From Chloroflexia bacterium (GTDB taxonomy: Bacteria > Chloroflexota > Chloroflexia > QHBQ01 > JADMIH01), in the NCBI GenBank assembly GCA_038203825.1, contig JBBRDO010000006.1, positions 3,760 through 67,759 on the forward strand: a DNA stretch of 64,000 bases. Reading direction: 5' to 3'. Shown here in pieces: positions 3,180-58,181 of this stretch. The position numbers and the translations under genes were made by a program. The stretch's first letter is position 1. Each line of letters begins with the position of its first letter. A model generated the notes under the pieces. It did no database searches, was not told the origin of the DNA, and saw only the letters and a list, made by a program, of their open reading frames with translations.

Positions 3180-3284
3180 TTTGTTTCCTCATCTACGTGA
3201 TAGGTGATAAGTGACCTGATACATGACGAGGCTTATACCCCGGTTATCACGTAGCGCGTATCACCTATCACGACGGGTCACTGC

Positions 3285-4601
3285 CTACCGGAAGGCCGAC
3301 TTCAGCTTGGACAGTAGTTTGCCTTGCATTGCCCCGTCCTGGGCTGCGGCTGTCGCCTGTGCCAGCTGTGCTTCCTCGGTTGTGGTTGAGGTCAGGAGGC
3401 GAGCCAGCCGGTATACGTCACGCGAGAATGGGTGCTCGCGGGCTGATATTACCAGGGGAACGCCCTGGTTGATCGCCATAAGCATCGCCACCCCGTCATT
3501 GCTGAGGCCAACCAGCACCTTCTGTCGCAAGGTCTCCTCAACGGCTTCCACCTTGATGCCGCCTGCGCTACCCGATCTGTTCAGCACCAGCTTCACTTTC
3601 TCGGTCGGGTAGTTCAGCTTCTCGACTACTTCCAGATACAGCTTCACATCCTTGATGGCGGTCATTTCGAGCGTCATCACAAGCAATATGTCGTCGGCCA
3701 GGTCCATTGCCGTCAACACCGTGTCGGCGAAGGAAGGCCATGTATCCACTATTACATAGTCATAGTGGGCGGAAAGCTCTAATAGTATTCGGCGAATATG
3801 CTCCGCCGTTATGAGCTCGGCCATCTCAGGCTGCGGGGGTCCAAGCAGGACCTTAACACCTGATGAGTGCGTGACCATTATGTCGTTGAGGAGGTCGGCG
3901 TCCAGTTCGTCTATGTGCTCCACGGCGTCTACCATGGTCTTGTTGGAGAGAAGATTTAGCATTACGCCCAGGTCGCCAAAGTAGAGCGAGCTATCGACCA
4001 GCGCAACTTTCTTCTGCGTCGACAGTCGCAGCGCCACGGCCAGGTTGGCCGAGAGCACCGTTCTCCCCACGCCCCCCTTTGGGCTCACGACCGCCATAAT
4101 GCGTCCCTGAGTCGATTCGTCGTCGCCGTTCTTGCCGTTGGACGCGCCCATACCCTGTGCAGGAGTCATCATCATCGCCTGCGCCATGCTGCGCTTGCTC
4201 GACTCAAGCCTATATACGTGCCGTATAGAGCGGACCAGGTCATCGCCTGAGAAGGGCTTGACAAGGAATTCGCGTGCCCCGGCAAGCATTGCGCGCCGCA
4301 GATAGTCCTGCTCGCCTTGCACCGACATCATGATGATGCCTATGCCGGTCATTTCAGTACTCATCAGCTCTGCAGCCTTGATACCGTCCATCTCAGGCAT
4401 ATTGATATCCATGAGTACGACATCCGGGTGCAGCTTGCGGGCTGTGTCAAGTGCCTCTGGCCCGCTGGCCGCCGTTCCTACGACTTCGATGTCGCGCTCA
4501 AACATCAGTAATTTGCTGAGGTTTTCGCGTGTGTCCGAGATGTCATCTACTATTAACACCCCTATCTTAGGCATTGAGCTGTTTGCTCCGGGGCTATCCA
4601 T
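3285..4601 (-). CDS. cpaE: CpaE/TadZ-like pilus localisation protein: N-terminal response-receiver domain fused to a ParA/MinD-type ATPase
   Basis: Receiver-like N-terminus (VLIVDDISDTRE...DVVLMDINMPEMDG...KPF). Deviant Walker A SPKGGVGRTVLSANLA. AGGAG RBS 6 nt before the ATG at 4601. Confidence 0.85.
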   Translation of the reverse strand: MDSPGANSSMPKIGVLIVDDISDTRENLSKLLMFERDIEVVGTAASGPEALDTARKLHPDVVLMDINMPEMDGIKAAELMSTEMTGIGIIMMSVQGEQDYLRRAMLAGAREFLVKPFSGDDLVRSIRHVYRLESSKRSMAQAMMMTPAQGMGASNGKNGDDESTQGRIMAVVSPKGGVGRTVLSANLAVALRLSTQKKVALVDSSLYFGDLGVMLNLLSNKTMVDAVEHIDELDADLLNDIMVTHSSGVKVLLGPPQPEMAELITAEHIRRILLELSAHYDYVIVDTWPSFADTVLTAMDLADDILLVMTLEMTAIKDVKLYLEVVEKLNYPTEKVKLVLNRSGSAGGIKVEAVEETLRQKVLVGLSNDGVAMLMAINQGVPLVISAREHPFSRDVYRLARLLTSTTTEEAQLAQATAAAQDGAMQGKLLSKLKSAFR

Positions 4602-4697
4602 TCTGCTCTCCTACGTGGTTAGTGATACGTGCTATGTGTCCGGGGACCGGAAGTGACAAGTCGGCACCGTCACCCGACCTGCTGATCGCTGCGTGGC

Positions 4698-5630
4698 TTA
4701 CGGCTGAGCGACGGGCGCCTGCAGTCCATATTCCTTTATCAGTGTTTGAATCGAGACACCCGTCGTCTTTTCTACGTCTTTATCGCCCCGGACATCGTTG
4801 CCTTTGTCGTCCTTCACCACCTGGCCCGCGTCATCCTTTTGTATGGCCGAAGAGCGAAGTGTGAGGTCCACTGAGCCATTCTGCCGGGCGTATGCGATGA
4901 CTTCAGCCTGCTGGTCAGTTACTCCAAGTACGAGCACCGTCTGATAGGGCGCCGCATCCAAATACATTGCTGCTGTGCTGGGCGGGGGCAGGGTTGCTGT
5001 CGTAGCGTTCGCGTTTGTGGCCTGGCCATTAGCGCCTGCCGGTACTTCCTGCGCCAACTTCATTACCCGGAGCACATGTATGTTCTGGAGCAAGGTCTTC
5101 GTAGAAGTGTAGTAATCTTCCACGGTGGTAGTTTTCCCCTCAGAGTCAACCTTTGGCCGGTCATACTTCAGCACTGCCGTCCAGATCAAGTCCACTCGAT
5201 CATTCTCCATAACGGCGTCACCGAATGTGCTCTTGGCAGGTACTGCCAGCACGAAACCGCGTTCTCCTTTGGCCAGAATGTCCGCAAAGCCGCTCTCCGT
5301 GAGCTGGTCCGTGCGCACCAGTTGGCCTTTGGTGAGGGGCAGCAGCGTCATCTTCCCGTATAAAGTGGAAGGTGAAGTGGTGGTATTGGTCGGTACTGTG
5401 CTTTGTTCTACACTGACCGTAGCTACATTGCCGGCGTCTAGCAGCGTATAAGCGGGCAAGTCTCGGTTGACGACCGCTACATCCACCATCACCGGGGCAG
5501 TAGTGGGTACTGTTGCTGCGTTACCGGTTGTCGTCAGTTTGCCCGACATTACCACGTATACGACGACGAACGCCATCGCCGCAAGCAATCCGCCGAGCAA
5601 GAGCAGAAATTTTCCACCGCGTGTTTTCAT
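4698..5630 (-). CDS. cpaB: Flp pilus assembly protein CpaB/RcpC (SAF domain)
   Basis: N-terminal TM anchor MKTRGGKFLLLLGGLLAAMAFVVVYVV followed by a CpaB-like region. First gene of the Tad block. GGAGG RBS before the ATG at 5630. Confidence 0.8.
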   Translation of the reverse strand: MKTRGGKFLLLLGGLLAAMAFVVVYVVMSGKLTTTGNAATVPTTAPVMVDVAVVNRDLPAYTLLDAGNVATVSVEQSTVPTNTTTSPSTLYGKMTLLPLTKGQLVRTDQLTESGFADILAKGERGFVLAVPAKSTFGDAVMENDRVDLIWTAVLKYDRPKVDSEGKTTTVEDYYTSTKTLLQNIHVLRVMKLAQEVPAGANGQATNANATTATLPPPSTAAMYLDAAPYQTVLVLGVTDQQAEVIAYARQNGSVDLTLRSSAIQKDDAGQVVKDDKGNDVRGDKDVEKTTGVSIQTLIKEYGLQAPVAQP

Positions 5631-5749
5631 GGCTTAGTGCCTCCATTTATGTTGAGAATTCGAAATACCAGGATTCGATCTCCGAGCGTCCGATAAGATA
5701 TGACAAAGTACGATTGCTTCTAAAGGCCCACGTGCGTGCCGCCCACGCC

Positions 5750-7884: not shown

Positions 7885-7905
7885 GTCACTTATCACTTAT
7901 CACTT
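7885..7905. repeat. Heptamer tandem repeat (g/a)tcactt x3 (reverse complement AAGTGAT) between the RR stop and the HK start
   Basis: Read directly: gtcactt atcactt atcactt. Confidence 0.75.
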
Positions 7906-9497: not shown

Positions 9498-11870
9498 TTA
9501 TACACTTTGCTTTGCGCCCGCTTCGACCTTTTCACGGTTCGTAGCGGCGGCCTCAGGCATGGTCGCGGCAACCTCCTGCGGCTCTTCGCTTTCCGTCTCG
9601 CCCAGCCCCAACTTCTTATAGAGGGCAACCAGTGGACGTGGCGCCCACCAGTTGTATTTCCCTAACAGTCGCATCGTTGCAGGCACCAGCAGCAATCGCA
9701 CTATGGTCGCGTCGACGAATATCGCCAGCGCAAGGCCGGTCCCTACAAGCTTGATGAGCAGCACCTGCCCGAGCGAGAAGGTCCCGATCACGACCACGAG
9801 CAAGACGGCAGCGCTTGTTATGATGCCGCCTGTGCGCTGGACACCCGTTGCCACTGCTTTTACGGTGTCCCCCGTCCGATCGTAGCTCTCCTTGATGCGA
9901 CTCAACAAAAATACCTCATAGTCCATTGAGAGGCCAAAAGCGATCGCGAAGATAAGCACCGGCATCGTGCCGTCAATGCTACCGGTGGGCGTGAAGCCCA
10001 GGATGTTGGACAGGTTGCCGTCTTGAAAGATCCAGACGATCGCCCCGAAGCTCGCGGATAGCGAAAGCACGTTCAGCACAACCGCTTTCAACGGCACAAT
10101 CAGGCTGCCGAGCATCAGAAACAACAGCACAAACATAACGATCACAATCAGGCCAAGGGCAAAAGGTATCCCCATCTCCAGGCTGGATAGAAAGTCGACT
10201 AACTGTGCCGACTGACCCCCCACCTGTGCATTCATCCCCTGTGGCGGTGCCAGTCCCCTTAAGCTTTTCACCAGCGCCTGCGCTTGAGCCCCCAGCGGTG
10301 CCCCGTCATAAAGCACATTAACCAGGCTGTACTCGCCATTCGAATAGTGCCCGGCAGCCTGCGCAGCCAGCCCCGCCATCGGGCTCGTGGCGTTGCCAAT
10401 CGACGAGTAGAATGCCTCGTAGCCCGCTTTGCCTGCTGCATCTAGCTGCGGATCCAGGGTTACAAGACTTTCTACCTTGGTGACCCCAGGCACAGTCTCT
10501 ATCCGGCGCGTGTAGTCGAATAACGCGTCCAAAGACGCCTTGTCGAGTGCAGGGCTTGTGCTGTGCACGACTAACTGAATTGGCTGGGTCTCGTTACTGG
10601 AGAAGTTGTTCATTAACGCGTCGCCCACCTGCCGCCCCTCGGAACCTAAGGGCAGCACACGGTGATCCGGCACCGAAATGTTAATGCTAAAGAAAGGCAA
10701 GCCCACGATCAGTAGCGGCACCACTCCGACTATGAGGATGAGAATCGGGTGCTGCATTACGAAATTGCTGACGTTGTACCAGAAGCCGGCATCGCCCAGG
10801 GTAGCCGGGTCGGTAGCAGCCCTCTTCGCGCCGCGCCTAAATATAGAACGCACCGACAGTGAGTTCACGCGGTGACCCATCACAGCCAGGATGGCCGGAA
10901 GGACAGTCACGGCCCCGATCATCGCTATCATGACCGCTGCCGCCCCGCCCCAGCCAAGGCTCTTCAGGAACATCTGGGGGAAGACCACCAGGCTCAAGAG
11001 ACTGATCATCACGGTCAGACCGCTGAATATGACCGTGCGGCCTGCCGTCTGCATGGTGCGAATAAGAGCTGCATGCACGTCTCCGTCTCGGCGCACCAGC
11101 TCTTCGCGGAAGCGACTCACGATAAAGAGACTGTAGTCAATCGCAAGCCCCAGTCCAAGCATCGTGACGATATTGATCGCGTACACTGACACGTCAGCGA
11201 AGTTCGTGGTGATCCGCAGTACAAGGAACGCGCCCAGAATGGCGAACCCTCCGATAAAGAGCGGCAGCGCAGCAGCCAGCAGGCTACCGAAGATGATTAC
11301 CAGCAACATGAAAACAATCGGGAACGACAATGTCTCCGCCTGAGCGAGGTCGTGCTGCACCAGGGCGTTGATCTCTTCACTTATGGGAGGATAACCGCCC
11401 AGTTGCACCTGCAGAGTGTCGCTAGTGAGCAGAGGACGCAGCCGAGCCATATTCTGTAGCTGCACGTCATCGTCGCCCTCCAGACCAACCGCTGCGTACG
11501 TGCTTGTGTGGTCTTTTGAGACGAAGACGGTCGCGCCTGTGCTGTAAAATGTGCTGATCTTGCCCACGTTTGGCTGCCCATTGAGCTTGCTGAGAGTGCT
11601 CTCGACCGCAGTCTTGTAACTTGCGCTCTCGACCGTTGAGCCATCCTTAGAGGTGAATAGCACGACCAGTATCCGGTCGTCAGCACCAAGCTGGCTCTTG
11701 AGGAGATCCTCTACACGGGTCGACTCGGCAGATGGGTTGTTATAGCCGCCTGCCTTCAACTGCCCGAAGACTCCTATGCCGAAAATGCCGCTCAGCGCCA
11801 TAAAGACCAGGCCTGCCGCCAGCACAATCCAACGGCCGCTGTATATGACCGAGCCCAACCTTTCAAACAT
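9498..11870 (-). CDS. MMPL-family (RND superfamily) membrane transporter
   Basis: 790 aa with two 6-TM bundles and two large extracytoplasmic loops. MMPL-like segments: LAIDYSLFIVSRFREE and GLSMDYEVFLLSRIKE. Confidence 0.9.
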   Translation of the reverse strand: MFERLGSVIYSGRWIVLAAGLVFMALSGIFGIGVFGQLKAGGYNNPSAESTRVEDLLKSQLGADDRILVVLFTSKDGSTVESASYKTAVESTLSKLNGQPNVGKISTFYSTGATVFVSKDHTSTYAAVGLEGDDDVQLQNMARLRPLLTSDTLQVQLGGYPPISEEINALVQHDLAQAETLSFPIVFMLLVIIFGSLLAAALPLFIGGFAILGAFLVLRITTNFADVSVYAINIVTMLGLGLAIDYSLFIVSRFREELVRRDGDVHAALIRTMQTAGRTVIFSGLTVMISLLSLVVFPQMFLKSLGWGGAAAVMIAMIGAVTVLPAILAVMGHRVNSLSVRSIFRRGAKRAATDPATLGDAGFWYNVSNFVMQHPILILIVGVVPLLIVGLPFFSINISVPDHRVLPLGSEGRQVGDALMNNFSSNETQPIQLVVHSTSPALDKASLDALFDYTRRIETVPGVTKVESLVTLDPQLDAAGKAGYEAFYSSIGNATSPMAGLAAQAAGHYSNGEYSLVNVLYDGAPLGAQAQALVKSLRGLAPPQGMNAQVGGQSAQLVDFLSSLEMGIPFALGLIVIVMFVLLFLMLGSLIVPLKAVVLNVLSLSASFGAIVWIFQDGNLSNILGFTPTGSIDGTMPVLIFAIAFGLSMDYEVFLLSRIKESYDRTGDTVKAVATGVQRTGGIITSAAVLLVVVIGTFSLGQVLLIKLVGTGLALAIFVDATIVRLLLVPATMRLLGKYNWWAPRPLVALYKKLGLGETESEEPQEVAATMPEAAATNREKVEAGAKQSV

Positions 11871-13463: not shown

Positions 13464-15335
13464 CTATTTGGGCGCGATCTGAGTGAAATAATCGCGCACC
13501 AGGTCTTTATAACCCTGTGGGATGTAGTCGCTGCTGAGCGCCTCCCCCGCCTGATCCTTGTACTGCCCGTACACGTCCTCATAAGGGGTCAGAGCCTGGC
13601 CTGTGATGTTGTTGTCTGCGTTTGTAGGGGCCGTGCTCTGCTCTCCATTCGGATTGTCCTGTCCCTGCACCGAGACGGGAGTTAACCTCGTCTGCACGCT
13701 ACTCGGAGGCACATACACCGGCTCCTCGTGTCCCTTGCCCCAACCACCGGCAGGCGGTCCGGCGTTCTGCCCTTGACCTTGCCCTTGTCCGTCACCCTGT
13801 CCCTGCCCCTGCCCTTGACTCTGGCCTTGCCCTTGCCCTTGTCCGTCACCCTGTCCCTGCCCTTGACTCTGGCCCGCACCGGGCGTACCTTGACCTTGTC
13901 CCTGACCTGCAACGGGGGTGCCCTGTTCGGGCGTGCCCTGGGCGAGCACGGGCGTACCCGTACCTGCTCCGGCGGGTGTGCCACTTATGGGACTACCAAG
14001 AGCCACCACAGTGCCGCTTGTCGCAACGGGACTGCCACTTCCCGCAACTGACGTGCCGCTCGCACCGGGAGTACCGTTCGCGCCCGCCGTAATCGCAGCT
14101 ACGACGGTGCCATTGGCCCTCGGCGTGGCCCGGTCAGCCCCCGCGATATTCTGCTTGCTCTGCTGAATCTGCGAAAGTGCCTGCTCGATCTGCCTCTGCG
14201 TTGCAAGGTTGTTAGCCGTGTCCTTCACCTTGTCCGCCAGATTTTGTAGCGCGTCTTTCGCCACCTGCGGATCGCCGCTATCGAGCGCATTTGCCGCATC
14301 GTTCAGCCTGCTCGCTAACTCCGGGTCCGAGGCAGCTACCTTGTCTCGTGCGTCGCGCAGCTCCTGAGCAAGGCCTTTACGCTCTTCGGGCGTCATCTTA
14401 TCGACCGACTCGGCGGCTTTGGCAATATCCTCTGCGGCCGTTTGTGGGTCGTTGTTGGCCAGTGCTTCGGATGCGGCCTTTAACGCGCGGTTCTCCGACG
14501 TCCCCAGTTGCTTCGCAAGCTGATCCAGCGCCTCGTGTTGGGCCGCCGCTTGCGGGTCGAGCGCCTGCTGCAATTCTGCCTGCGTTTGAGACAGGCGCGC
14601 AAGGGCTTCTTCGCTCGTCAGGTCGCCTTCTTTGAGATCCTGCGATAGCGCATCCAACTCTTGCAGCAGTTTCTGCAAGGCAGGGTCGTCCGCGTTGGGA
14701 GATTTCTCTATCGCCTGCTTTAGTACTTCTATGTTCTTCTGCTCAGCGGCCACCTGCGGGTCGGCCTTCTTTGCCGCTACCTGTGGTACCATACCCGGAA
14801 CGAACAAGACCGCCAGCAGCAGCAGCGCAAGCGCACCGGACGGCAGGAATGGCCTCCTATCCAGCACAATAGGTAGATCGCGAGCAGGCACCACACCCTC
14901 GAGCGAGTGCAATGCATCGTCCAGTTGAGCATCGCGTAATGCCACGAGCGACGCGGTGGGACTGAGAGGAGGCTTCGATGCGTCCTCAACCGCAGTCGAC
15001 AGGCGCTCGTCCAGGCCAAGCCGCAAATCGGCCTGCAGTGCTGTAGCAAGGGCATCTCGTGGCCGCAAGAATGAATAGCCAACCACGCAGACCCCAGAAG
15101 ATAGCAGAATCAGCGCGCCCGCAAGTCCCAGCCCCGGCAGGTCGGGCCAACCCGCCAACCTCATACTCACCCCAAGCCCGATCGTCAGAACCAGCCCGAA
15201 GCCAAACGCCCACGGGATCAGCCTTGTGGCCTCCTGCAAGCGAAAACGACGCTCCAATGCTGCCAGCAAGCTTCGCAGCCGTTGCAGGCGGGGGTCGATT
15301 ACGTTGCTATTGGGCCGGCGGGTTGGTGAGGTCAT
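13464..15335 (-). CDS. Membrane-anchored protein of unknown function: 2-3 N-terminal TM segments, long Ala/Gln/Leu-rich helical region, GQ/GD low-complexity tract, conserved-looking C-terminal tail
   Basis: 623-aa ORF. Its ATG overlaps the stop of the ABC-2 permease (ATGA at 15335-15332). The sequence ends ...YIPQGYKDLVRDYFTQIAPK. Confidence 0.8.
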   Translation of the reverse strand: MTSPTRRPNSNVIDPRLQRLRSLLAALERRFRLQEATRLIPWAFGFGLVLTIGLGVSMRLAGWPDLPGLGLAGALILLSSGVCVVGYSFLRPRDALATALQADLRLGLDERLSTAVEDASKPPLSPTASLVALRDAQLDDALHSLEGVVPARDLPIVLDRRPFLPSGALALLLLAVLFVPGMVPQVAAKKADPQVAAEQKNIEVLKQAIEKSPNADDPALQKLLQELDALSQDLKEGDLTSEEALARLSQTQAELQQALDPQAAAQHEALDQLAKQLGTSENRALKAASEALANNDPQTAAEDIAKAAESVDKMTPEERKGLAQELRDARDKVAASDPELASRLNDAANALDSGDPQVAKDALQNLADKVKDTANNLATQRQIEQALSQIQQSKQNIAGADRATPRANGTVVAAITAGANGTPGASGTSVAGSGSPVATSGTVVALGSPISGTPAGAGTGTPVLAQGTPEQGTPVAGQGQGQGTPGAGQSQGQGQGDGQGQGQGQSQGQGQGQGDGQGQGQGQNAGPPAGGWGKGHEEPVYVPPSSVQTRLTPVSVQGQDNPNGEQSTAPTNADNNITGQALTPYEDVYGQYKDQAGEALSSDYIPQGYKDLVRDYFTQIAPK

Positions 15336-16312
15336 TCCACACTAGATACGTTCCGGTCGGGCGGAAGGTTGCCGGCGGGCGACTCGGGGACCGCCTGATC
15401 ATACGCATAGGCCACGTTATTGTGCCTGTAATGTATTGGCTTGACGCGACGGATGCTGATTACAACGAGCAGAGCGCTCACCAACAGGGCCTCAATGCAG
15501 AAGATGAGCCACGGCGAGATCACAAACAGGGAATGCCCCTGCCAGATTTCGCTGCTCGTGTATATGAAGAGCGGCTGCCCCTGCAAGAAGAAAGCCTCGC
15601 TCAGGGACATCGCTATAAAGGGGTGAAAAGACAGCACGACGCCACTGATATACCAGAAGCTGGCGTGATCTTGAATGCTCGTGCCGCTCGCCGAGGAACC
15701 GCCGTTGAAGATCGTGACGAAAAGGAAATACAGGAACGGCATGACAAGCAACTGCAAAAGGATCGTGCCGTACGTGAGCACATTGCTGGCAACGCTGCTC
15801 TTCACTACCGTTGACCAGAAGATGCCTATGGAGGCAAACAGAACGGCTGCCATCAGCAGCACCACCTGCGACAATATCACCTCTTCAGGCGACACCCCGC
15901 CGAACATAAACGCGAGGCTTTGCAGCGGTGCGACCGCCAGTATCAGCAAGGCGACCCAGGCAAGCGCGGCGCCCAGCTTGCCGAAGATAACCGACCGCGC
16001 AGGGAGAAGGGTGGTCATTAGCAGGTCATATGTCTTCTGCTCGCGCTCGGAGGTAATCGAGCCCGCTGTGAAAGCCGGGGTAAGGAGCGCCACCATAACG
16101 GTCTGGAAGCCCACCAGCACACCAAAGATCGTCTTCCCGATTTGAGACGACTGCCCTCCATAGTAGTTGTTGGACGAATAGCTGCCGACTGCAAGGAACG
16201 TAAGCCAAGTCACGAGGCTGAGGATCAGCAGATAGATCACGAGGATGGCGACAGAGCGCCAACCGCGCATTCTGCCCCGCAGCTCTTTGACTATTACCGG
16301 ATTAGCTTGCAT
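15332..16312 (-). CDS. ABC-2-type transporter permease
   Basis: 326 aa with about 6-7 TM segments. The N-terminus MQANPVIVKELRGRMRGWRS is typical of ABC-2/GldF-like permeases. Lies downstream of the ABC ATPase. Confidence 0.8.
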   Translation of the reverse strand: MQANPVIVKELRGRMRGWRSVAILVIYLLILSLVTWLTFLAVGSYSSNNYYGGQSSQIGKTIFGVLVGFQTVMVALLTPAFTAGSITSEREQKTYDLLMTTLLPARSVIFGKLGAALAWVALLILAVAPLQSLAFMFGGVSPEEVILSQVVLLMAAVLFASIGIFWSTVVKSSVASNVLTYGTILLQLLVMPFLYFLFVTIFNGGSSASGTSIQDHASFWYISGVVLSFHPFIAMSLSEAFFLQGQPLFIYTSSEIWQGHSLFVISPWLIFCIEALLVSALLVVISIRRVKPIHYRHNNVAYAYDQAVPESPAGNLPPDRNVSSVE

Positions 16313-16326
16313 GGGTTCTCCTGAAG

Positions 16327-16383
16327 CGACGACGGACCACGGACGATAGACTACTAAGCAGCGTCGTCCGTGGCCCGTCGTCT
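16327..16383. repeat. Imperfect 20-bp inverted repeat (GACGACG/GACGGAC heptad family) between the ABC ATPase and permease genes
   Basis: cgacgacggaccacggacga (16327-16346) pairs with tcgtccgtggcccgtcgtct (16364-16383): 18 of 20 positions, 17-nt loop. Confidence 0.7.
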
Positions 16384-20217: not shown

Positions 20218-20320
20218 ATGGCGTGATGTGTCCTCTCTAGTGGCAGCAAGTGGCAGCGGCAGTATCAATATAGCGGCATAGTACATAACGAAGCAAGCAC
20301 ACAAATAGTTGCATCTGCCC

Positions 20321-23467: not shown

Positions 23468-24559
23468 CTAAGTGTTGGCGCTCTTAGGAACCAGCTCGCG
23501 AAGTATTGAGGTCACACGCATATATGAGGTGTCGTCGAGAGGGGTCCGCGTGACGATTACCCCGGAGTTCAAATCCTTAATCTTGGAAGCCATATCGTAC
23601 TGAAGCCAGATCACAGTTGGAGGATCGGCAAAGTTCGTTACAGGCTGTGGCTGAGTTAAGACAACTACAGGTTCCACCCATTGTTTCGCTATTCCATGCC
23701 GCTTCAGATGGTCGTTCACGGAGGCTGCATTTCCCTTGGCCTGCATGGAGGGATCCGGTCGCAGCGGTCGCCACTGCTTTCCTGTTTGATGCTGCCATTG
23801 GCCATTCCACACTCGCAGAGTGCTCTTATGGGACTTCACTTCTAATGCCCAGACACCACTCGGTCCGACGAGGATGATATCGGTATCTCCACCCTTTTGC
23901 GTATCACTGCCGGATAATACAAGACTACAGAAAACGCTCCATCGATTGTCCAGGTTAGCGCGCAAGACTTCAAGTACGGCTGCTTCACCCTCGCGACCTG
24001 ATCTATAGTTCTTGAATTCCGATAGCTTGTTCTGGACACGATTCTTGAACCACCAGCCTAACGCGACAAATGGGAGTAACAATAGAGCAAGGGCCGTGAA
24101 TACAGTTACCCAGGAATTGCCCTTCGCCAGCGTATTGACAGTGCCGCTTATTAGCCAGTTCAATACGGTAACAGCGATCAGAATACCGACAAACCCATAA
24201 AAGACGGCGTCAAGGAGATTGCCGTACTGTTTCTCCTCTAGGTGCTTACTCTTTCCGAACACGTGGGGACCATAGCGTCGGGTTGCCTCCACAACCTCTC
24301 GGGTGCCCAAGTGATAAATCAACAGCGTGCGGGCTGCTTCTCGAGGCTTTTGCTCGTAAGCATTGACCAGTTCCCAGCCGAGATCTGCAGCCGTTATCTC
24401 TCCCCGACGGAGTAGTTCCCCCATTGCGCCCTTACGGTTTCCCATGTAGGGGACTGTCTCAGCATCCGCTAGAGACATGGTGGGTGTTAGTACGACTCGT
24501 TCAAGAGCGTTCTCAAGTGCGCGGTCACCCGGAGCGGACGACCCAGATTCTATCGCCAT
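23468..24559 (-). CDS. NERD (nuclease-related domain) protein with central TM helices
   Basis: NERD-like core GREGEAAVLEVLRANLDNRWSVFCSLVL...GDTDIILVGPSGVWALEVKSHK. Two TM helices lie upstream of it. The gene looks more AT-rich than its neighbours by eye. Confidence 0.75.
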   Translation of the reverse strand: MAIESGSSAPGDRALENALERVVLTPTMSLADAETVPYMGNRKGAMGELLRRGEITAADLGWELVNAYEQKPREAARTLLIYHLGTREVVEATRRYGPHVFGKSKHLEEKQYGNLLDAVFYGFVGILIAVTVLNWLISGTVNTLAKGNSWVTVFTALALLLLPFVALGWWFKNRVQNKLSEFKNYRSGREGEAAVLEVLRANLDNRWSVFCSLVLSGSDTQKGGDTDIILVGPSGVWALEVKSHKSTLRVWNGQWQHQTGKQWRPLRPDPSMQAKGNAASVNDHLKRHGIAKQWVEPVVVLTQPQPVTNFADPPTVIWLQYDMASKIKDLNSGVIVTRTPLDDTSYMRVTSILRELVPKSANT

Positions 24560-36468: not shown

Positions 36469-36477
36469 TGATATAAT
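36469..36477 (+). promoter_or_regulatory. Extended -10 element TGaTATAAT upstream of the STAND/cyclase gene
   Basis: Read directly. Lies 69 nt upstream of the ATG at 36546; GGGGAGGGAG RBS at 36534-36543. Confidence 0.45.
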
Positions 36478-36545
36478 CAACAAATAAATATCGTATAAAG
36501 ACTCTAGCTCGAGCCTACCATCTATGGAGTATAGGGGAGGGAGCT

Positions 36546-42900: not shown

Positions 42901-44973
42901 AACGAGGCCAACTTCGTCATCTTCAAGTACGACGGCACCCTCGTCATGCCGGGCGGCACCGTTAATACAATTGCCAATCAAGCCACCATTACCGGCGTGA
43001 GTACCTTCTCCGACTGGTCCCTGGCCGAGCCAGCCGCCGCCAACACCCCCACCCCGATCCCAACCAACACCCCTACCTCCACACCGACCGTTACAACTGC
43101 ACCAAGCGATACAGTCACCACCGCTGCGACGCAGACCCTCACGACTACGCCAACTGAAACTCCGACGAGCTCGCCGACCTACACCGAAACCCCCACCGAT
43201 CTTCCCGCGCTAACCCCTACCTTAACGCCAACCGACACGAGCACGGCTACCGACACAGCAACGCTTATTCCAACCGGGACCCCTACAAGCACAAGCACGA
43301 ACACGGCAACCGAGACGCCGACAAAAACACCAACGTCTACGCCCACCGATGTGCCCAGCACAAACACCCCCAGCGAAACTCCAACCAGCAGCTCCACGGA
43401 AACAGACACAGCGACCGCCACTGCCACTAACACCAATACCCCGACCGAGACACCAACGAATTCACCGACCGACACTAATACCCCAACAGACACTAACACA
43501 GCTACAAACACGCCAACTGCGTCGCCAACATCTACCTACACCCCAACTCTTACGTCAACGCCAACGCCTACAAACACCAACACACCCACCAACACCCCAA
43601 GCTTAACCCCAACCCCAACAGAATCCAACACATCGACAAACACGCCGACTGACACGAACACGCCCTCTAACACTGCTACCACGACTCCGACGAACACGTC
43701 GACGTACACTGGTACACCAACCTACACTTCGACCAGCATCCCCAGCAACACCCGAACGAATACAGCGACGAGCACGAGTACCCCCACAAGCACGGCGACT
43801 GACACTTCAACAAATACGCCCAGCATAACCCCCACAAATACCGACACGGCTACGGCCAGTCCAACCATCACGTCGACTTACACCAGTACGGCGAGCCAGA
43901 CTCCTACTAACACACCAACCAACACACCAACGAACACAGACACAAGCACACCATCAAGCACGCCAACCACCATCCCGAGCAACACAGCCACAGATACCCC
44001 CACAAATAGTCCGACGAGCATCGGCACCAACACCCCTACTAACACTACGACGAACACAGTCACAAGTACGGCTACCAATACAAGTACAAATACCTTGACG
44101 CCTACGAGCACTGTGCCAACGTCCACCGACACGGCTACCGCGACCCGAACCTCTACTTCAACCGACACTCCCCCAGCTACCGCTACTCAGATGTTCACCA
44201 GTAGCCCAACGAGCACGCCTGCTGACACAACCATACCCACGGACACGCCGACCGACATACCGACGAGCACGATCACCGGCACGCCTTCAGCCACCCCGAC
44301 CGCATGCGAATTGCCGTTCGTCGACGTTGCTCCCTCCGACTGGTTCTACGAGTATGTGCAGTATCTCTACTGCCACGGGGTCATCAACGGCTATGTCACG
44401 GAGCCGCCTTGCGATGGGGGCACACCTTGCTTCAAGCCGGTGAACCCCACGACCAGGGGGCAGCTGTCCAAGATCGTGGTCCTCGCGTTCGCCTTCCCGA
44501 TAGACGTTTCCGCGGGGCCAAGCTTCGAAGATGTAGCCGAGGGAAGTACCTTCTATCCCTACATCGAGACAGCCAGGAGCCTCGGCCTGGTCAACGGCTA
44601 TGATTGCGGCAGGCTGGGCGAGCCCTGCGACCCGTACAATAGGCCATACTATCACCCCGAAAGAAACGTGACAAGAGGCCAGATCACCAAGATCGTAGTT
44701 TCCTCGGCGATCATTGCCGACCCGGTCAGTTGGACGTTGCTTGAGCCGGCAGAGAGCGCCTTCCAGGATGTCCCAGCCGGCAGCACGTTCTTCCGATTCG
44801 TGGAGACGGCCTACGCGCACGGCATCATCAATGGCTATCCATGCGGGCCGGCTCCTGCGGGCGTGTGCGTGCCACCCGACAACAAGCCTTACTTCTTGCC
44901 GAATGCGGATGTGACGCGAGCACAGATCAGCAAGATCGTATATCTCGCGAGGACAAGTTCGGCGCGCAGGTAG
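39922..44973 (+). CDS. Giant cell-surface protein: N-terminal adhesin-like domain, FN3, long Gly/Thr-rich beta-helix-like region, about 420-aa Thr/Pro linker, three C-terminal SLH domains
   Basis: FN3: [35 protein letters not shown] x3: [78 protein letters not shown]. There is no signal peptide at the annotated ATG. Confidence 0.9.
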
Positions 44974-45395: not shown

Positions 45396-45410
45396 TGATG
45401 CATGAGCACG

Positions 45411-45446
45411 ACTTACGATCAGCGATTTACGATCAGCGACTTACGG
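45411..45446. repeat. 14-bp repeat ttacgatcagcga x about 2.5, the reverse complement of the 34401-34454 unit
   Basis: acttacgatcagcg atttacgatcagcg acttacgg, read directly. Confidence 0.85.
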
Positions 45447-45447: not shown

Positions 45448-45981
45448 CTACAACTCGTCCGGCCAGAGCGACAGGTCACATACGTCACGATAGCCGCAGG
45501 CGCGGCAGCGTGCGGGCACGTCGTGGTTGCGCGCGACCTGCCACTCCTCCTGGGTGGCCGTTGTGCGTATTTGCTCCATAGCCTCCAGAAGATGTGCCCG
45601 CGTCTTGCTGTTGTAGTCCACCTTGAATGTGTTGGTGCTGTATTTGAGCAAGCCGTAGGGAGGCTTTTTGCCCTGGGTTTCTTCCAGCAACAGACAATAA
45701 GCCAGTAGCTGTAGAAGGTGCGATTCGCGCGGCTCACTGTCCGTGCGCGTGGGCTTGACCTCTACGGGAACTGGGCCGCGGGATGTGCTGACCACGTAGT
45801 CCGGAGTGCCGGTCAGCCCGTAGCGCGCCGAAAAGAGGGGCTTGCCTCTCTCCTCGATACCCGTGTCCGACTGCATGATTTTCCCTTTCGGCAATCCACT
45901 CTCCTGCCGAAGGCGCGCCGAACGAGCCAGCATAACGACCGCTAGCGCGACAAGTGCTATCGCAATAAAGACCCAGAACAT
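45448..45981 (-). CDS. Cas4/DUF83-like PD-(D/E)XK nuclease with an N-terminal TM helix (solo, no CRISPR context)
   Basis: Motifs GTPDYVV ... VEVKP (D...ExK), LLQLLAY (QxxxY) and C-terminal CRACGYRDVC (CX2CX5C). TM helix MFWVFIAIALVALAVVMLA. I prefer ATG 45981 (GGGAG RBS); the alternative is GTG 46008. Confidence 0.7.
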   Translation of the reverse strand: MFWVFIAIALVALAVVMLARSARLRQESGLPKGKIMQSDTGIEERGKPLFSARYGLTGTPDYVVSTSRGPVPVEVKPTRTDSEPRESHLLQLLAYCLLLEETQGKKPPYGLLKYSTNTFKVDYNSKTRAHLLEAMEQIRTTATQEEWQVARNHDVPARCRACGYRDVCDLSLWPDEL

Positions 45982-46079
45982 GTCTACTCCCAGGAAGCGG
46001 CCGGACACGGTCGCTTATGAGTGGCAAGCGTCACGCCAGTCGTATTTCTAGCCCCTAACCCCTCGCCACCGGTCACTGG

Positions 46080-47120
46080 TCACCCGGTCGCCACATGAAG
46101 CCAGGGCGGGTAATCGGGCAGGGGTGTCGATAGGTCGCGCTCGACGGTCACAAAGCTGTCGCCCGCAACTTTGGAGAAGCCCATCTGGCGAAAGAGCAGG
46201 CGAATGGGTAGGTTCTGCTGGTTTACCCTGTACACCGCCTTTATACCCTTCATGCCCGCGTTGACTGCCTCGGCGAGTATCCAGCGCAGCAGGGCCGCCG
46301 GGATACCCCTCCCCTCCACGCGACACGACAACATAACCAGCTCCACGAGCCACACATCCGCTGGCCAGGGGGGTTGGGTATCCACCAATGCAGCACCGAT
46401 CAGGCCGTAGTCGCCGAATCGGTCGGTCAGGCGCGCTGCCGGCATTAGCCAGCGGGGATCGCGCCAACGCTCGCGCAACTGCTCAAAGGTATAGCTGCGT
46501 CCCGTCGAGTTCAGTTGGTGCGTGCGCTCGGTGAGTTCGTGGATGCGCGGCAGGTCGGCCTCGGTCGCGGGCGCTATGGCTAGACGCATCTCGCACCAGG
46601 CCATGAAGCTCGCCCGGTCGCCTTTGAAAGTCGTCTGGGCACGTCGTCGCTCATCCTCTTGCCTGTACATACGGGCCCGCCGGGCGCTCTCCTGAGTGGA
46701 GCCAGTCGGACTGAAGGCCGGTGTGTCTATAGCTGCGGCAATCTCTTCAGGCGATAATACAAGAACCTCGGGGAGCATATACTGCACTTCGGCGCGCTCA
46801 AAGGGGCTATCATCTACGAACGCCACCGCATCAAGTCCGATGTTCAGATTGTCCGTGATGCGCCGAATCGACATACTCTTGGGTTCCCAACTCACCTGCG
46901 GCGCCACGAATAGGCCCTGTAGCGAGGGATGGGAAAGCAGGCTGTCCAGCGACGATGGATCGTTCCGGCTCGCGACACTGCTCACAATGCCACGCTTCTC
47001 TAGCGCGGCTATTATGCCAAGCATTTCGGGCTTTGGCTCCAGAACCTGCGCATCGGCCGCTTCAGCCGCTACTCCTTGCCAGAGCGTATTATCAAGATCC
47101 CAAACGACGCATTTTATCAT
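46080..47120 (-). CDS. HAD-IIIC/FkbH-like phosphatase domain fused to a GNAT-like domain
   Basis: MIKCVVWDLDNTLWQG (the DxDxT HAD motif), SRND and FVDDSPFER. The C-terminal half has a GNAT-like fold (CRVEGRGIPAALLRWILAEA). The stop TGA is embedded in GTGACC heptads (46063-46085). Confidence 0.75.
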   Translation of the reverse strand: MIKCVVWDLDNTLWQGVAAEAADAQVLEPKPEMLGIIAALEKRGIVSSVASRNDPSSLDSLLSHPSLQGLFVAPQVSWEPKSMSIRRITDNLNIGLDAVAFVDDSPFERAEVQYMLPEVLVLSPEEIAAAIDTPAFSPTGSTQESARRARMYRQEDERRRAQTTFKGDRASFMAWCEMRLAIAPATEADLPRIHELTERTHQLNSTGRSYTFEQLRERWRDPRWLMPAARLTDRFGDYGLIGAALVDTQPPWPADVWLVELVMLSCRVEGRGIPAALLRWILAEAVNAGMKGIKAVYRVNQQNLPIRLLFRQMGFSKVAGDSFVTVERDLSTPLPDYPPWLHVATG

Positions 47121-47144
47121 AGCTGACTAACCGCAGACGAGAGG

Positions 47145-47246
47145 CGAGTCGTAGATCGTAAGTCTCAGATCGTAGATCGTAAGTCATGCGCCACAGGCAA
47201 TTCGCAACATGCGACTTACGATCAGAGACCTACGATCTACGACTCG
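47145..47246. repeat. Long imperfect palindrome built from GTCGTAG/ATCGTAA heptads
   Basis: Left arm cgagtcgtagatcgtaagtctcagatcgtagatcgtaagtcatgcg (47145-47190). Right arm catgcgacttacgatcagagacctacgatctacgactcg (47208-47246). The outer 16 bp are perfect. Confidence 0.8.
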
Positions 47247-47253
47247 TCGGTCC

Positions 47254-49473: not shown

Positions 49474-49482
49474 AACTCTCGA

Positions 49483-49510
49483 AGTCGCTGATCGTAGGTC
49501 ACAGATCGTA
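49483..49510. repeat. Two copies of the 14-bp heptad-pair repeat (agtcgctgatcgta ggtcacagatcgta)
   Basis: Read directly. It lies between the bpsA-like start and the GH13 stop, followed by a GACGGAC-type tract at about 49530-49555. Confidence 0.75.
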
Positions 49511-49594
49511 AGTCGTCACGTATCACGCCATCGTCCGTCGATGAGACGATGTGTGGTATTAATGGTCCGATGGTCTACAGATTACTGTGCGTTC

Positions 49595-56112: not shown

Positions 56113-56304
56113 AGTACGCTTCTATAGTACGAACCGGGTTACTCGGGCCTGCGGGACAAGTGATAAGTCAGGGGGCGACCGATGTGGCATGTCGGATGGC
56201 GTAGCACTTATCGGGCGCATGGACGCACTTTATTGAACCTGTTACTGTGAAGATTGTATCATAAAGTAGTGTATAGCTCACCACGCGATTAGGAATTCTC
56301 TCTT

Positions 56305-56910: not shown

Positions 56911-56911
56911 A

Positions 56912-58108
56912 ATGGACGCCTTGCGCCGCCTGATACAACCCGAGTCCTCGGGAAACGCGAGGACAGTACGCCGCGTGCCCGCGCAGCCCGCCCTGCAGCC
57001 TGCGAGCCGCCTGCGTGGGCCGAACAAGAGACTGGCAGACGCGCTCGACCAGTTGCTGGCAGGGGTGCCTCTTAACTGGGGGCAGGTGGAGGATGACCCC
57101 GAGCTACTTACGCTGGCACGACTGCAGGTAGCAGGACAGGAGTGCAGGCTGCAGCACGTGACGGCGACAACGGCTGACGAGCGGGCCGCTTTGCTCGAAC
57201 GTTTATCTCCCACGCTTGACAAGATCAAGCGAGTGCCCGTGCCGAAAGCGGAAAAGGTGATGCCGAAGACGCTGGCGGGCTTTTCCGAGAAAGTGCAAGT
57301 GCTTACGCAGCCCGAGGAAGATATTCCGGTCAACACCAATATTCTGGCCTTGATTGTGAGGGTGGTGGCAATAGCTGCGGTTGGAGGCTTGGCGATATGG
57401 GGCATTTTCAGCCTCGTGGCGGCGACGGCTGCGCCCACATTCAGTTGGATCGAGCTGAAGAACGGGGAGACCGTGGTCAACAGGATAGACCGCTCGGGCG
57501 TCTGGCAGAGCTACCCTTGCAAAGTACGCCGGGAAGCAGAGCTGGTCTTCACCGAGTACTACCAGGGATTCACCAGCAAGCGCGACGCGGGTGATGCGCT
57601 GGACTTCATCATCCCCACGCTGCCGTCGCTTATAACCGACCCACCCACGTATACGCTGTCCCTTAACTTGATGTCGATAGCTCCGTGCGAGTTGGGCAGG
57701 ATTGTTGACGCCGACCCTGGGGCCATACTCAAGCTCGACTACGGGGTGCAACATACAATAGTGGCGACAAGTGCCCAGCCGAGCACACCAGGCAGTGGGG
57801 CAGGGGTCGGCATGGTGGCCGGGCCAATGGCTGTGTACATCGCCAAGGTCCAGCCTACTCCCCTGGACGTGAGCGTGGGAAATTGGCACGAGGTGAGGGT
57901 ATCGCCCGCAAATGGAAGAGGCGCGTTTCACGGTGTGTTCTGGCACGGCACACCATACTACGACAGGGCGGGAGTGCGCTGGGCGGGCGATGTTAGCGTG
58001 CTGATGGTGGAGCGCGGCGATATGCTTTACACCCTCATCGGCGCGCCCACCGACGGCATCACCGAGGAGTTTCTGCTATCTGTCGTCAGGAACAGCAACT
58101 GGCAGTGA
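56912..58108 (+). CDS. Putative anti-sigma factor / single-pass membrane protein
   Basis: Starts 1 nt after the sigma gene's stop codon. Central TM helix ILALIVRVVAIAAVGGLAIWGIFSLVAATAA with a large extracytoplasmic C-terminal domain. Confidence 0.6.
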   Translation: MDALRRLIQPESSGNARTVRRVPAQPALQPASRLRGPNKRLADALDQLLAGVPLNWGQVEDDPELLTLARLQVAGQECRLQHVTATTADERAALLERLSPTLDKIKRVPVPKAEKVMPKTLAGFSEKVQVLTQPEEDIPVNTNILALIVRVVAIAAVGGLAIWGIFSLVAATAAPTFSWIELKNGETVVNRIDRSGVWQSYPCKVRREAELVFTEYYQGFTSKRDAGDALDFIIPTLPSLITDPPTYTLSLNLMSIAPCELGRIVDADPGAILKLDYGVQHTIVATSAQPSTPGSGAGVGMVAGPMAVYIAKVQPTPLDVSVGNWHEVRVSPANGRGAFHGVFWHGTPYYDRAGVRWAGDVSVLMVERGDMLYTLIGAPTDGITEEFLLSVVRNSNWQ

Positions 58109-58139
58109 GGACTGATACTTGAGGGGTCAGGCGTCATGC

Positions 58140-58181
58140 GTGACAAGTGATAAGTGATAAGTGGCAGGTCAGCGGTGGACG
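58140..58181. repeat. GTG-phased heptad tract: gtgacaa gtgataa gtgataa gtggcag gtcagcg gtggacg
   Basis: Read directly. It begins 32 nt after the anti-sigma stop. Confidence 0.8.

Follow-up and report, generated by a model that had tools for sequence, protein, structure and literature searches.

Heptanucleotide repeats between genes of a Chloroflexota lineage keep their period and exchange their sequence

Heptanucleotide repeats are overrepresented in bacteria and constitute the commonest long simple-sequence repeats in many of them, for which the footprint of the polymerase has been put forward as an explanation (Mrazek 2007, cited in PMC4679880 and PMC4692102); long simple-sequence repeats are cited as having units of 5–11 nt (Mrazek et al. 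2007, as cited). The STRR (short tandemly repeated repetitive) elements of heterocystous cyanobacteria (Mazel et al. 1990, cited in PMC4692102) are built from 7-bp units and fold into hairpins, as in the hupS–hupL spacer, with proposed roles in transcript stability or translational coupling (PMC2670836), and an STRR insertion has been described in an RNase P RNA gene (Vioque 1997, cited in PMC2858038). The length and sequence of the G-rich GGGNATC heptamers of Xanthomonas and Nostoc vary between close relatives (Rehm et al. 2015, PMC4692102). Direct repeats of TAACTGA, in forward orientation and immediately before start codons, occur in marine Beggiatoaceae, in cyanobacteria, and in some Bacteroidetes (MacGregor 2015, PMC4679880). 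Chloroflexus aurantiacus carries 22 dispersed satellites derived from (GATAGRA)n, which form Fam_1_14_23, the largest bacterial satellite family in the survey that described it (Subirana & Messeguer 2019, PMC6749651). Repetitive extragenic palindromes (REPs) with a GTAG or CGTC tag are fixed units of 20–40 bp whose tag is unpaired and whose stems measure 5–13 bp; the class tagged with GTAG has been linked to REP-associated tyrosine transposases (RAYTs; PMC3733652, PMC3116915). Here we describe tandem arrays of 7-nt units, or heptads, dispersed between the genes of a 64-kb stretch of a Chloroflexia genome (assembly GCA_038203825.1, contig JBBRDO010000006.1, positions 3,760 to 67,759), hereafter called the window. 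Heptameric intergenic repeats have been known since 1990, and, outside cyanobacteria, this Chloroflexota lineage from soil carries them at an unusually high density, with at least four unit families in 64 kb that occupy ~10–17% of the non-coding DNA.

The gene map of the window was built from codon-usage log-odds and assigned 89.5% of the DNA as coding. Imperfect tracts were defined by at least 15 self-matches in 21 positions at a given lag, and perfect runs by at least 11 consecutive self-matches. Six perfect runs have period 7 and five have period 14, all of them intergenic; the perfect runs in coding DNA have periods of 6, 12, 18, and 24 only, together with one of 21. Ten of the eleven imperfect lag-7 tracts are intergenic or lie on a gene end, the eleventh (41284–41313) is at chance level, and all seven lag-14 tracts are intergenic. 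Each of the remaining lags that are not multiples of three produced at most one imperfect tract, and periods 7 and 14 are the sole such short-repeat periods in excess. The nine lag-7 and seven lag-14 intergenic tracts compare with a mean of 0.05 (maximum 1) in 200 dinucleotide-preserving shuffles of the intergenic segments.

The repeats had been noticed in a reading of the DNA letters by a model (the original prediction), and the checks that it proposed support the observation. Autocorrelation peaks at period 7 in intergenic DNA (0.312 at lag 7 and 0.291 at lag 14, over a baseline of ~0.25) but not in coding DNA (0.254 at lag 7). The intergenic lag-7 value was still 0.295 when the obvious arrays were masked, and decayed heptads therefore reach past the visible arrays. 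The heptamers named in the prediction are ~3- to 20-fold denser in intergenic DNA, with the exception of GGGGTTA. All of the listed positions hold the described repeats, as established by direct reading and Tandem Repeats Finder. Tracts cover 10.5% of the non-coding and 0.26% of the coding DNA, and our hand-curated list of elements spans ~17% of the non-coding DNA, which bears out the proposed confinement to non-coding sequence except for two arrays that overlap gene 3' ends. A strong period-7 signal is present in seven of the 33 gaps of at least 40 bp, and the inclusion of weaker and period-14 cases increases the number to ~15. The claim that almost every intergenic gap contains the repeats was thus overstated, the one such correction to an otherwise confirmed observation.

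The three unit families that had been distinguished are present as described: A-type (GTGAnnn), B-type (GTCGTAA, GTCGCTG, and ATCGTAA, often as a 14-mer), and C-type (GACGACG and GACGGAC). A fourth family, D-type (GGGGTTA, GGGGCGA, and GGGGCTA), had been missed and occurs at 20317–20343 and 46048–46063. Families share gaps, as the prediction stated, at 33119–33196 (A and C), 35458–35614 (C and A), 46048–46089 (D and A), and 49480–49555 (B and C). Tandem Repeats Finder showed that the periods of 14 and 35 nt belong to higher-order repeats made of heptads. Many B-type and related units contain GATC. The D-type units GGGGTTA and GGGGCGA appear capable of forming G-quadruplexes; at 4919–5008 of the related contig L002, GGGGCGA/GGGGTTA x6 is accompanied by GACGACG x3 and CCCTAAC x3, and the G-rich run conforms to (G4 N3)n, a G-quadruplex motif, in which it resembles the GGGNATC repeats.

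RNA folding separates the elements into two forms. Long hairpins without U-tracts, each made of an array and its inverted copy, were correctly anticipated for six elements (z from −4.1 to −8.4), and none of the six is followed by a run of T; the remaining elements are unpaired arrays with z ~0 (7885–7905, 33124–33196, 35569–35614, 45405–45446, 46048–46089, 49480–49555, and 58131–58170). The hairpin stems are 20–45 bp long and heptad-built. The B-type copies, ~40 to 156 bp long, have a common complex terminus, GAGTCGTAGATCGTAAGTC, which occurs at several loci of the window, and a modular mirrored interior that differs in each copy, and their GTAG is base-paired within the stem. Five of the six hairpins start at most 8 nt from a stop codon. 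Because they lack a U-tract, the hairpins were excluded as intrinsic (Rho-independent) terminators, and a CRISPR array was excluded by the head-to-tail arrangement of 7-, 14-, and 35-nt units without spacers. The whole window has no Rfam match at gathering score, and the region 33000–36600 gave only chance microRNA-hairpin matches (E = 0.24). The window has no tRNA, and no association of the repeats with tRNA or tmRNA was found.

The arrays are positioned close to stop codons. In co-directional gaps, 24 tracts are closer to the upstream stop and seven to the next start, with median distances of 8 nt to the stop and 48 nt to the start. Arrays also lie upstream of conserved promoters (33227–33255). 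The stop-side position fits a location in 3' untranslated regions (UTRs). The genes of the window are ordinary housekeeping and envelope genes.

Comparison with related loci, another of the proposed checks, showed that the arrays are not confined to the window and that the period is kept across the clade and the sequence is replaced. The nearest named proteins belong to Chloroflexia and Chloroflexota metagenome-assembled genomes (MAGs). Two close relatives, the syntenic contigs L001 and L002, encode RsgA proteins 91–93% identical to that of the window, and two more distant syntenic relatives, L014 and L015, encode RsgA proteins 66–69% identical to it. L001 and L002 carry arrays in the same gaps as the window but with other content, and the adjacent promoter-like sequences are conserved throughout. 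The SpoIIIAA-R3H gene is followed by GTGACCA x4 and C-type units in the window, by GTGACCA x2 and a GTGATAA hairpin in L001, and by a GTGAAAA/GTGATAA hairpin in L002. The gap between the RsgA and zinc-ribbon genes holds a B-type hairpin with 4.8 copies of a 14-mer in the window, a short B-type hairpin with ~1 copy in L001, and weakly folding D- and C-like heptads (z = −0.55) in L002. Upstream of RsgA, the window has ATCACTC x6.6, L001 has ACTTATC x3 (also written ATCACTT), and L002 has no array. Hairpin arms co-vary between relatives, with GTGATAAGTGATAAGTGA/TCACTTATCACTTATCAC in L001 versus GAAAAGTGATAAGT/ACTTATCACTTTTC in L002, and CCCGAG/CTCGGG in the window versus CGCAGG/CCTGTG in L001.

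L014 and L015 are as rich in period-7 and period-14 tracts, which are made of unrelated units; the period is therefore conserved and the sequence is not. The units of distant relatives include AATCCGC (in L014), GCTGATA, and GGTAGCC x10 and GCGAGAC (both in L015), and a GAATTAC x5/x5 hairpin of L014 reaches z = −10.5. In the distant relative L016, the only array is GAAGATA x3, made of the unit known from Chloroflexus, and no heptad arrays were seen in L013 among the relatives compared. The pooled set of the window and 24 related loci (262.6 kb) contains 53 lag-7 tracts, four of them deep in coding DNA, and 41 lag-14 tracts, three of them deep in coding DNA; the other lags that are not multiples of three have 3–5 tracts each. 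A perfect 25-bp stem after a gene of L014 (12507–12581; −47.8 kcal/mol, z = −10) has neither heptad texture nor a U-tract, and long post-stop hairpins of the clade are therefore not always heptad-built. Period and sequence are separated more cleanly here than in the classical cases, and the relatives allow comparisons that bear on the origin of the number seven, and on a terminator or stabiliser role of hairpins where canonical terminators look scarce.

The analogy to STRR sequences drawn in the original prediction is supported on each of the structural points compared. Both have 7-bp tandem units of several families at many dispersed non-coding loci, here four or more families in ~15 gaps, with unit families mixed within a gap. 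Both form inverted-array hairpins in intercistronic spacers, between hupS and hupL there and between ABC-transporter ATPase and permease genes here (16321–16383), and both are occasionally inserted where a gene tolerates it, in the gene of RNase P RNA there and in a loop of the L015 RsgA here. The host phylum differs, Chloroflexota instead of Cyanobacteria, and the stop-codon-side position has been demonstrated for the arrays described here. The units of STRR1, STRR2, and STRR3 are CCCCAGT, TTGGTCA, and CAACAGT, and no tandem copy of them, in any rotation or on either strand, was found in the window and 51 loci. The nearest is TGGTCAC, which matches TGGTCAT in six of seven bases. Because the units differ from STRR1–3, the repeats are a functional and structural analogue of STRR sequences, not a member in the narrow sense.

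The repeats also belong to the general class of Mrazek 2007 (as cited), with at least ~3 tandem 7-nt copies, an excess over expectation, and a mostly intergenic location. Similar to the GGGNATC repeats, they are heptamers that constitute the main non-triplet class, are intergenic, and vary at the same gene pairs between close relatives, but most of the units are not G-rich, and inverted-array hairpins are prominent here and not part of that description. The original prediction knew of no equivalent in a Chloroflexota-like genome; a brief description exists in the form of the Chloroflexus aurantiacus satellites (PMC6749651). These are from the same phylum, heptamer-derived, scattered over the genome, and species-specific, and have 14-nt higher-order periods; they comprise one unit family, whereas at least four families and hairpins are present in 64 kb here, and the paper is silent on hairpins, position relative to genes, and turnover. 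Tandem GATAGAA or GATAGGA was not found in the window and is present only in L016. TAACTGA repeats are likewise intergenic, with two to six or more copies, mixed with other heptamers in a gap and patchily distributed in phylogeny, and their unit is one base from an A-type unit (TGATAAC versus TGATAAG). They differ in having one dominant unit placed before start codons, as opposed to many units near stops that are often hairpin-paired, and tandem TAACTGA is absent from the window, with one x2 copy in L014. Identity with the STRR1–3, TAACTGA, GATAGRA, or GGGNATC units was rejected for the window, as there are no tandem copies. The repeats are thus a new dense multi-family case of a known kind of repeat, neither a named sequence family nor a new category, and they are of value for how cleanly period and sequence come apart and for the comparative material that they offer, rather than for any new mechanism.

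We consider the repeats to be STRR-like heptanucleotide microsatellites, with a probability of roughly 60%, which would originate from slippage and fold-back copying, pass from locus to locus, and be tolerated only outside reading frames, with some of the hairpins probably serving as REP-like structures at RNA 3' ends. A 7-nt unit would undergo tandem duplication, in some cases starting from a stop codon, and the resulting array would expand, contract, and homogenise through replication slippage, with later duplications in the 7-nt register giving periods of 14, 21, and 35 nt. Fold-back (template-switch) copying or arm-to-arm correction may then produce an adjacent inverted array, and with it a long near-perfect hairpin in which both arms change together. 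Unit types would spread between loci by ectopic copying or recombination within the lineage, without a recognisable transposase, and because units would be copied between loci in this way, each lineage would have its own heptad repertoire at many loci. Since a change of ±7 nt shifts the frame and most units carry stops, arrays would survive only in spacers, on gene ends, and, in frame, in tolerant loops. Within spacers they would come to lie near the stop codon, at a distance from ribosome-binding sites and promoters. The majority of the copies are probably neutral or selfish. The strong hairpins in 3' UTRs and intercistronic spacers probably act as REP-like RNA structures, similar to those of bacterial interspersed mosaic elements (BIMEs), which may be barriers to 3' exonucleases or pause and termination sites without a U-tract.

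Several loci illustrate how arrays may arise. The TGA stop of the gene at 31096–33129 is part of the first unit of a GTGACCA array; the L002 version of the gene ends one codon later with TAG, and its array begins 8 nt further on, which suggests, from the sequences compared, that the array was seeded by duplication of a 7-nt segment across the stop codon. The RsgA gene of L015 contains a 15-residue in-frame insertion (GSSEPRDASSEVEGDGEK region, 10385–10423) made of GCGAGNN heptads, the same type as in the array of the neighbouring gap (11514–11565). Arrays can therefore emerge at new sites, as the insertion consists of the lineage's own heptads. In L014, GAATTAC x5 pairs with its inverse in a perfect stem of 31 bp (15888–15988), which overlaps PdxT (SNO) at its called 3' end. 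The last ~23 residues of this protein (..RRITNYELRITNGSEPIFVIRNS) are translated from the array, which has no stops on the sense strand, and supplant the tail of the window and L002 proteins. The 1650-bp locus L017 carries a c-di-AMP-receptor gene with 85% DNA identity to that of the window and other neighbours on both sides. Relative to window positions 33220–33673 and 35480–35594, the gene is followed by GTGACCA x7 with GTGATAA/GTGATGA and then by the inverted upstream region of RsgA, and it is preceded by an unrelated gene; heptad arrays adjoin both collinearity junctions. In practical terms, the arrays can break assemblies, shift predicted stops and C-terminal tails, and coincide with rearrangement junctions.

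The units recur beyond the clade. Among the viral contigs of IMG/VR, (GTGACCA)3 is present in 20 and (GTGATAA)3 in seven (L025–L051), with GC contents of 0.20 to 0.74 and usually with other heptad arrays close by; L025 contains A- and D-type units like those of the window. In ten related viral contigs, the same heptad is repeated three, four, or five times between conserved flanks, and a neighbouring (GGAA)n run varies too. The 19-mer of the B-type terminus was searched in 185,579 species-representative genomes and occurs at seven loci of one Chloroflexia MAG (SMAG_U15799), which also carry the heptads TTAGATC and ATGCGTC, and at three single loci, with ~4 matches expected by chance. The single matches, in Acidobacteriota, Myxococcota, and Actinomycetota MAGs, were treated as chance or mis-binning. 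The 19-mer has no match in the viral contigs, in which A-type units do occur, and a phage origin of the B-type element was rejected on this ground.

A number of observations weigh against slippage and fold-back copying as the whole explanation. Slippage alone predicts neither the total absence of other periods nor the choice of 7 over 5, 8, or 10, and the recurrence of GTGACCA and GTGATAA at GC contents of 20% to 74% hints that certain sequences are preferred, which is not expected from pure slippage. Constraint on promoter and ribosome-binding sequences offers an alternative, passive explanation for the stop-side position. Strong structure is present at only four of 48 gene 3' flanks (z < −3), and hairpins were therefore ruled out as a general feature of gene ends. 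The RsgA/zinc-ribbon gap of L015 is 1 nt long and has no array, and orthologous gaps can thus lack elements. The hairpins are sporadic, and because so few flanks fold strongly and some orthologous gaps have no hairpin, any predicted RNA function would be local rather than general. Copy-number polymorphism within the lineage is deduced from relatives that are 85–93% identical; a metagenome scan for population variants with a conserved 26-mer beside the arrays found no match, and a protein-based scan returned eight short contigs. The absence of transposases was established for 64 kb, from which we infer their absence from the genome.

It is unlikely that the hairpin families, especially those with the B-type termini GAGTCGTAGATCGTAAGTC...GACTTACGATCTACGACTC, are REP/REPIN-like non-autonomous elements or miniature inverted-repeat transposable elements (MITEs) moved by a transposase encoded elsewhere, for example a RAYT of the IS200/IS605 family, with the heptad texture being secondary. 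The complex terminus does recur at many loci of the window and at the seven loci of the other Chloroflexia MAG, and B-type elements contain GTAG, the tag of REPs that in Chloroflexi are mostly downstream of genes and sometimes intragenic (PMC3733652). The elements resemble REPs, BIMEs, and REPINs in being scattered extragenic palindromes that mostly lie downstream of genes, vary between strains, are probably transcribed, and are occasionally found within genes, with a likely mRNA-stabilising role at the RNA level in common with REPs and BIMEs. The orthologous gap with B-type hairpins in the window and L001 and D-/C-like heptads in L002 looks like a replacement, and transposition has been suggested for the Chloroflexus heptamer satellites by the authors who described them (PMC6749651). 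However, the length and interior of the element differ at each copy, and direct reading revealed no target-site duplication at the B-type ends of 34391–34520 and 47128–47250; the two properties together exclude a MITE. Furthermore, GTAG is located inside the stem and is not an unpaired tag, the stems of 20–45 bp exceed the 5–13 bp of REPs (PMC3733652), the architecture is variable, and no transposase, RAYT, reverse transcriptase, or integrase was found among the ~50 proteins of the window. The comparison with described REPs, REPINs, and MITEs did not place the elements among them. Movement by a transposase would also leave the unpaired arrays and the lineage-specific 7-nt units unaccounted for.

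We also doubt that the elements are selected mainly as cis-acting RNA or DNA structures, such as U-tract-less terminators, insulators, or mRNA-stabilising 3' hairpins, in which heptads would be a register-tolerant way of building stems. The stability of the hairpins (−38 to −70 kcal/mol, z to −8.4), their starts next to stop codons, and the co-variation of arms between relatives speak for such selection. Sequence-unrelated hairpins or inverted repeats occupy comparable post-stop gaps of the same gene cluster in L001, L002, and L014; in L015 an inverted repeat was identified by reading only, as the folded L015 segment did not span both arms. A consensus scan for hairpin-plus-U terminators found 20 sites, none of them on a heptad element, versus 15.2 ± 4.3 expected, so that canonical terminators are not enriched, and a role in transcript stability has been proposed for STRR hairpins (PMC2670836). 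A tract is present in 20% of the divergent gaps, a smaller share than the 33% of co-directional and 36% of convergent gaps, but this difference is based on small numbers. Selection for structure is difficult to reconcile with the few strongly structured 3' flanks and with the fact that more than half of the arrays are unpaired. In addition, arrays occur in a likely 5' UTR (35569–35614), divergent gaps, a protein loop, and a translated C-terminal tail, and an orthologous gap can do without any element, as in L015.

Quite improbable, in our opinion, is that a dedicated process, independent of sequence and common to filamentous bacteria of unrelated phyla (cyanobacteria, Beggiatoaceae, and Chloroflexota) and their viruses, sets the 7-nt period, with arrays being filler or scars of break repair and rearrangement. 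A candidate would be an enzyme of repair or primer extension which, at breaks, adds or copies DNA seven nucleotides at a time. If true, this would account for the arrays at the synteny breakpoints of L017, the array in the RsgA loop of L015, and the near-identical units (GTGACCA, GTGATAA, and TGATAAC) found at GC contents from 20% to 74%.

It is very improbable that the arrays are cooperative platforms for a protein with a 7-nt footprint, for example a cold-shock-domain or nucleoid-associated protein, whose periodic binding selects the period. Such binding would suit a conserved period without conserved sequence and the recurrence of GTGAnnn units in very different genomes, and CspB is cited as binding heptamer direct repeats with one protein per heptamer (in PMC4679880). 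GTGA-type arrays also tend to share the sense strand of the adjacent gene, the stop-bearing strand being sense in 12 arrays and antisense in two, with seven ties. Nevertheless, the bias shrinks to six versus two without the arrays that overlap stop codons, for which the count is skewed by how a reading frame ends, and it was rejected as evidence. The diversity of the units (AATCCGC, GGTAGCC, GAATTAC, GGGGCGA, and others) is too great for a single sequence-specific binder, duplex stems take up half of the array sequence, and no candidate protein emerged. Random similarity or the mis-assembly of reads of low complexity, which might be suspected because the source looks like a metagenome assembly and the relative L001 is clearly riddled with frameshifts, is effectively refuted by the 16 tracts observed against 0.05 in shuffles, the presence of the phenomenon in independent assemblies (ENA, Logan, JGI, and NCBI), and the conserved flanks that bracket orthologous arrays.

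The individual elements are described below in the order of the window, with the strand given where one was assigned. An A-type hairpin at 3187–3277 was identified by direct reading and consists of GTGATAG GTGATAA GTGACCT and the inverted copy GGTTATCAC..TATCACCTATCAC. It begins 8 nt past the stop of the minus-strand gene at 3285–4601, includes a lag-7 tract (3244–3272), and folds with −38.8 kcal/mol (z = −4.06). The degenerate A-type array at 4611–4665 (plus strand), also read directly, is composed of GTGGTTA GTGATAC GTGCTAT GTG followed by GTGACAAGTCGG; it is unpaired (z = +0.95) and weak, with nine of 14 matches in the best lag-7 window. The A-type array at 7885–7905 (minus strand) contains 2.9 copies of TCACTTA on the plus strand, with 100% matches in Tandem Repeats Finder and a perfect run. 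It reads GTGATAA on the sense strand of the flanking minus-strand genes and is unpaired (z = +1.15).

The C-type hairpin at 16321–16383 (GACGACGGACCACGGACGA / TCGTCCGTGGCCCGTCGTC; −44.7 kcal/mol, z = −5.80) contains a lag-7 tract and occupies the 78-bp spacer between the stop of the ABC-transporter ATPase (16391) and the start of the permease (16312), both assigned by Pfam. The ribosome-binding site of the permease comes after the element and is left free. At 20317–20343 (minus strand), a D-type array with 3.9 copies of GCCCCTA on the plus strand (sense GGGGCGA/GGGGCTA), detected by Tandem Repeats Finder and as a lag-7 tract, codes for the final residues (..EGRGASG*) and the stop codon of the gene at 20321–21640, according to its translation. 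The C-type hairpin at 26685–26758 consists of GGACGAC x3 and the inverted copy GGTCGTCCGTCGTC, with a perfect run at 26693–26713; it lies just upstream of the start of a GT87 glycosyltransferase gene (26661) and folds with −38.2 kcal/mol (z = −6.91).

The array at 33124–33196 (plus strand) is a composite of GTGACCG and GTGACCA x4 (A-type), followed by GACGACG GATTGCG GACGACC GACGATG (C-type). It was detected by Tandem Repeats Finder, as a perfect run, and as a lag-7 tract; the translation places the TGA stop of the gene at 31096–33129 in its first A-type unit. The composite forms only a weak hairpin (z = −0.87) and is located upstream of the conserved promoter TTGACA-17-TAGTAT (33227–33255). 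The B-type composite at 33675–33830 begins 8 nt past the stop of the c-di-AMP-receptor gene and contains GTCGTAA heptads followed by 3.1 copies of a 35-bp unit (Tandem Repeats Finder period 35, score 188), each of which is a hairpin, GTAAGTCAT..ATGACTTAC. The right arm that comes next, GACTTACGATCTACGACTC, is kept in L001 and L002, and the element folds with −63.6 kcal/mol (z = −4.92).

Next to this composite, a conserved leader at 33838–33955 precedes the double-zinc-ribbon gene and is also present in L001, L002, L014, L015, L018, L020, and L023. It contains an extended −10 promoter (TGATATAAT) followed by a hairpin-plus-T-tract terminator, GCGGCCACGG..GGCCGC TTTTTT (33857–33885), which is the only convincing one in the region. 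The leader is kept down to c-di-AMP-receptor proteins of ~71% identity and has no Rfam match. It adjoins the c-di-AMP-receptor gene and could be an attenuator or a small RNA.

The B-type hairpin at 34391–34520 occupies the entire gap between the convergent zinc-ribbon and RsgA genes. Its left arm is the 14-mer GATCGTAAGTCGCT x4.8 (Tandem Repeats Finder score 111), and it folds with −69.8 kcal/mol on the plus strand (z = −8.38) and −63.2 kcal/mol on the minus strand (z = −6.74). A degenerate C-type array at 35458–35482 (plus strand; GGGACGA TGGACGA CCGATGA, a lag-7 tract) lies upstream of the RsgA start at 35448, as placed by homologues of 307 amino acids. The A-type array at 35569–35614 (minus strand) has 6.6 copies of ATCACTC on the plus strand (RsgA sense GAGTGAT/GTGATGA), a Tandem Repeats Finder score of 85, and a perfect run of 27, and is unpaired. 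It is directly downstream of a conserved TGTATACTT motif that we read as −10-like, in a likely 5' UTR. Repeats of 9 bp and 26 bp (GATCACGAA; GATCACGAAGATTCACGAAGGTTTAAGA) adjoin the heptad arrays upstream of RsgA at 35491–35545 and, because they are conserved in L001 and L017, stand outside the class with fast turnover.

The single B-type arm at 45405–45446 (minus strand) contains the 14-mer CGACTTACGATCAG x2.6 (Tandem Repeats Finder score 67, z = +0.95) and adjoins the stop of a Cas4/PD-(D/E)XK-like gene (45448–46008). The composite at 46048–46089 (minus strand) was read directly as CCCCTAA CCCCTCG (D-type) and CCGGTCA CTGGTCA CCCGGTC (A-type, sense GTGACCA), with Tandem Repeats Finder reporting 46067–46089 and a fold z of −1.24. 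The B-type hairpin at 47128–47250, 4 nt past the stop of an AdoMet-decarboxylase gene, has the termini GAGTCGTAGATCGTAAGTC ... GACCTACGATCTACGACTC, matches the B-type terminus, and folds with −64.1 kcal/mol (z = −6.88). At 49480–49555, direct reading identified the B-type units GTCGCTG ATCGTAG GTCACAG ATCGTAA GTC, with a B-type match, followed by a small C-type hairpin, CATCGTCCGTCGATGAGACGATG; the fold of the whole has z = +0.81. The site predicted at about 56165 (56155–56215) is weak: a lone GTGATAA and its inverted partner, CACTTATC, are present in a divergent promoter gap, with ten of 14 matches in the best lag-7 window. The last element, an A-type array at 58131–58170 (plus strand; GTGACAA GTGATAA GTGATAA GTGGCAG), was detected by Tandem Repeats Finder and as a perfect run; it starts 23 nt past the stop of the gene at 56912–58108 and is unpaired (z = −0.48).

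Other features of the window were recorded beside the heptad elements. The window includes about 700 bp (~35650–36400) that L001 and L002 lack in their orthologous gap between RsgA and NB-ARC, and the two small open reading frames within this segment (35676–35942 and 35932–36219) have no Pfam match. A NERD-domain gene at 23468–24559, located between the genes of a Cys/Met pyridoxal-phosphate enzyme and a DUF5680 protein, has a very low codon-usage score (13.3) and no counterpart at this place in L002, and was probably inserted recently. The gene of a 1683-residue SLH/G8-domain protein (39922–44973) is extremely skewed between strands, with a GC skew of −0.35 and an AT skew of +0.38, especially at 42000–44300, and many coding repeats of periods 6, 12, and 18 (CACCAA, AACACACCAACC), consistent with a low-complexity linker rich in Thr, Pro, and Asn. 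A coding repeat with periods of 6, 12, and 48 at 13768–13874 encodes a (GQ)n tract (..GQGQGQGDGQGQGQGQSQGQGQGQ..) in a 623-residue protein without a Pfam match.

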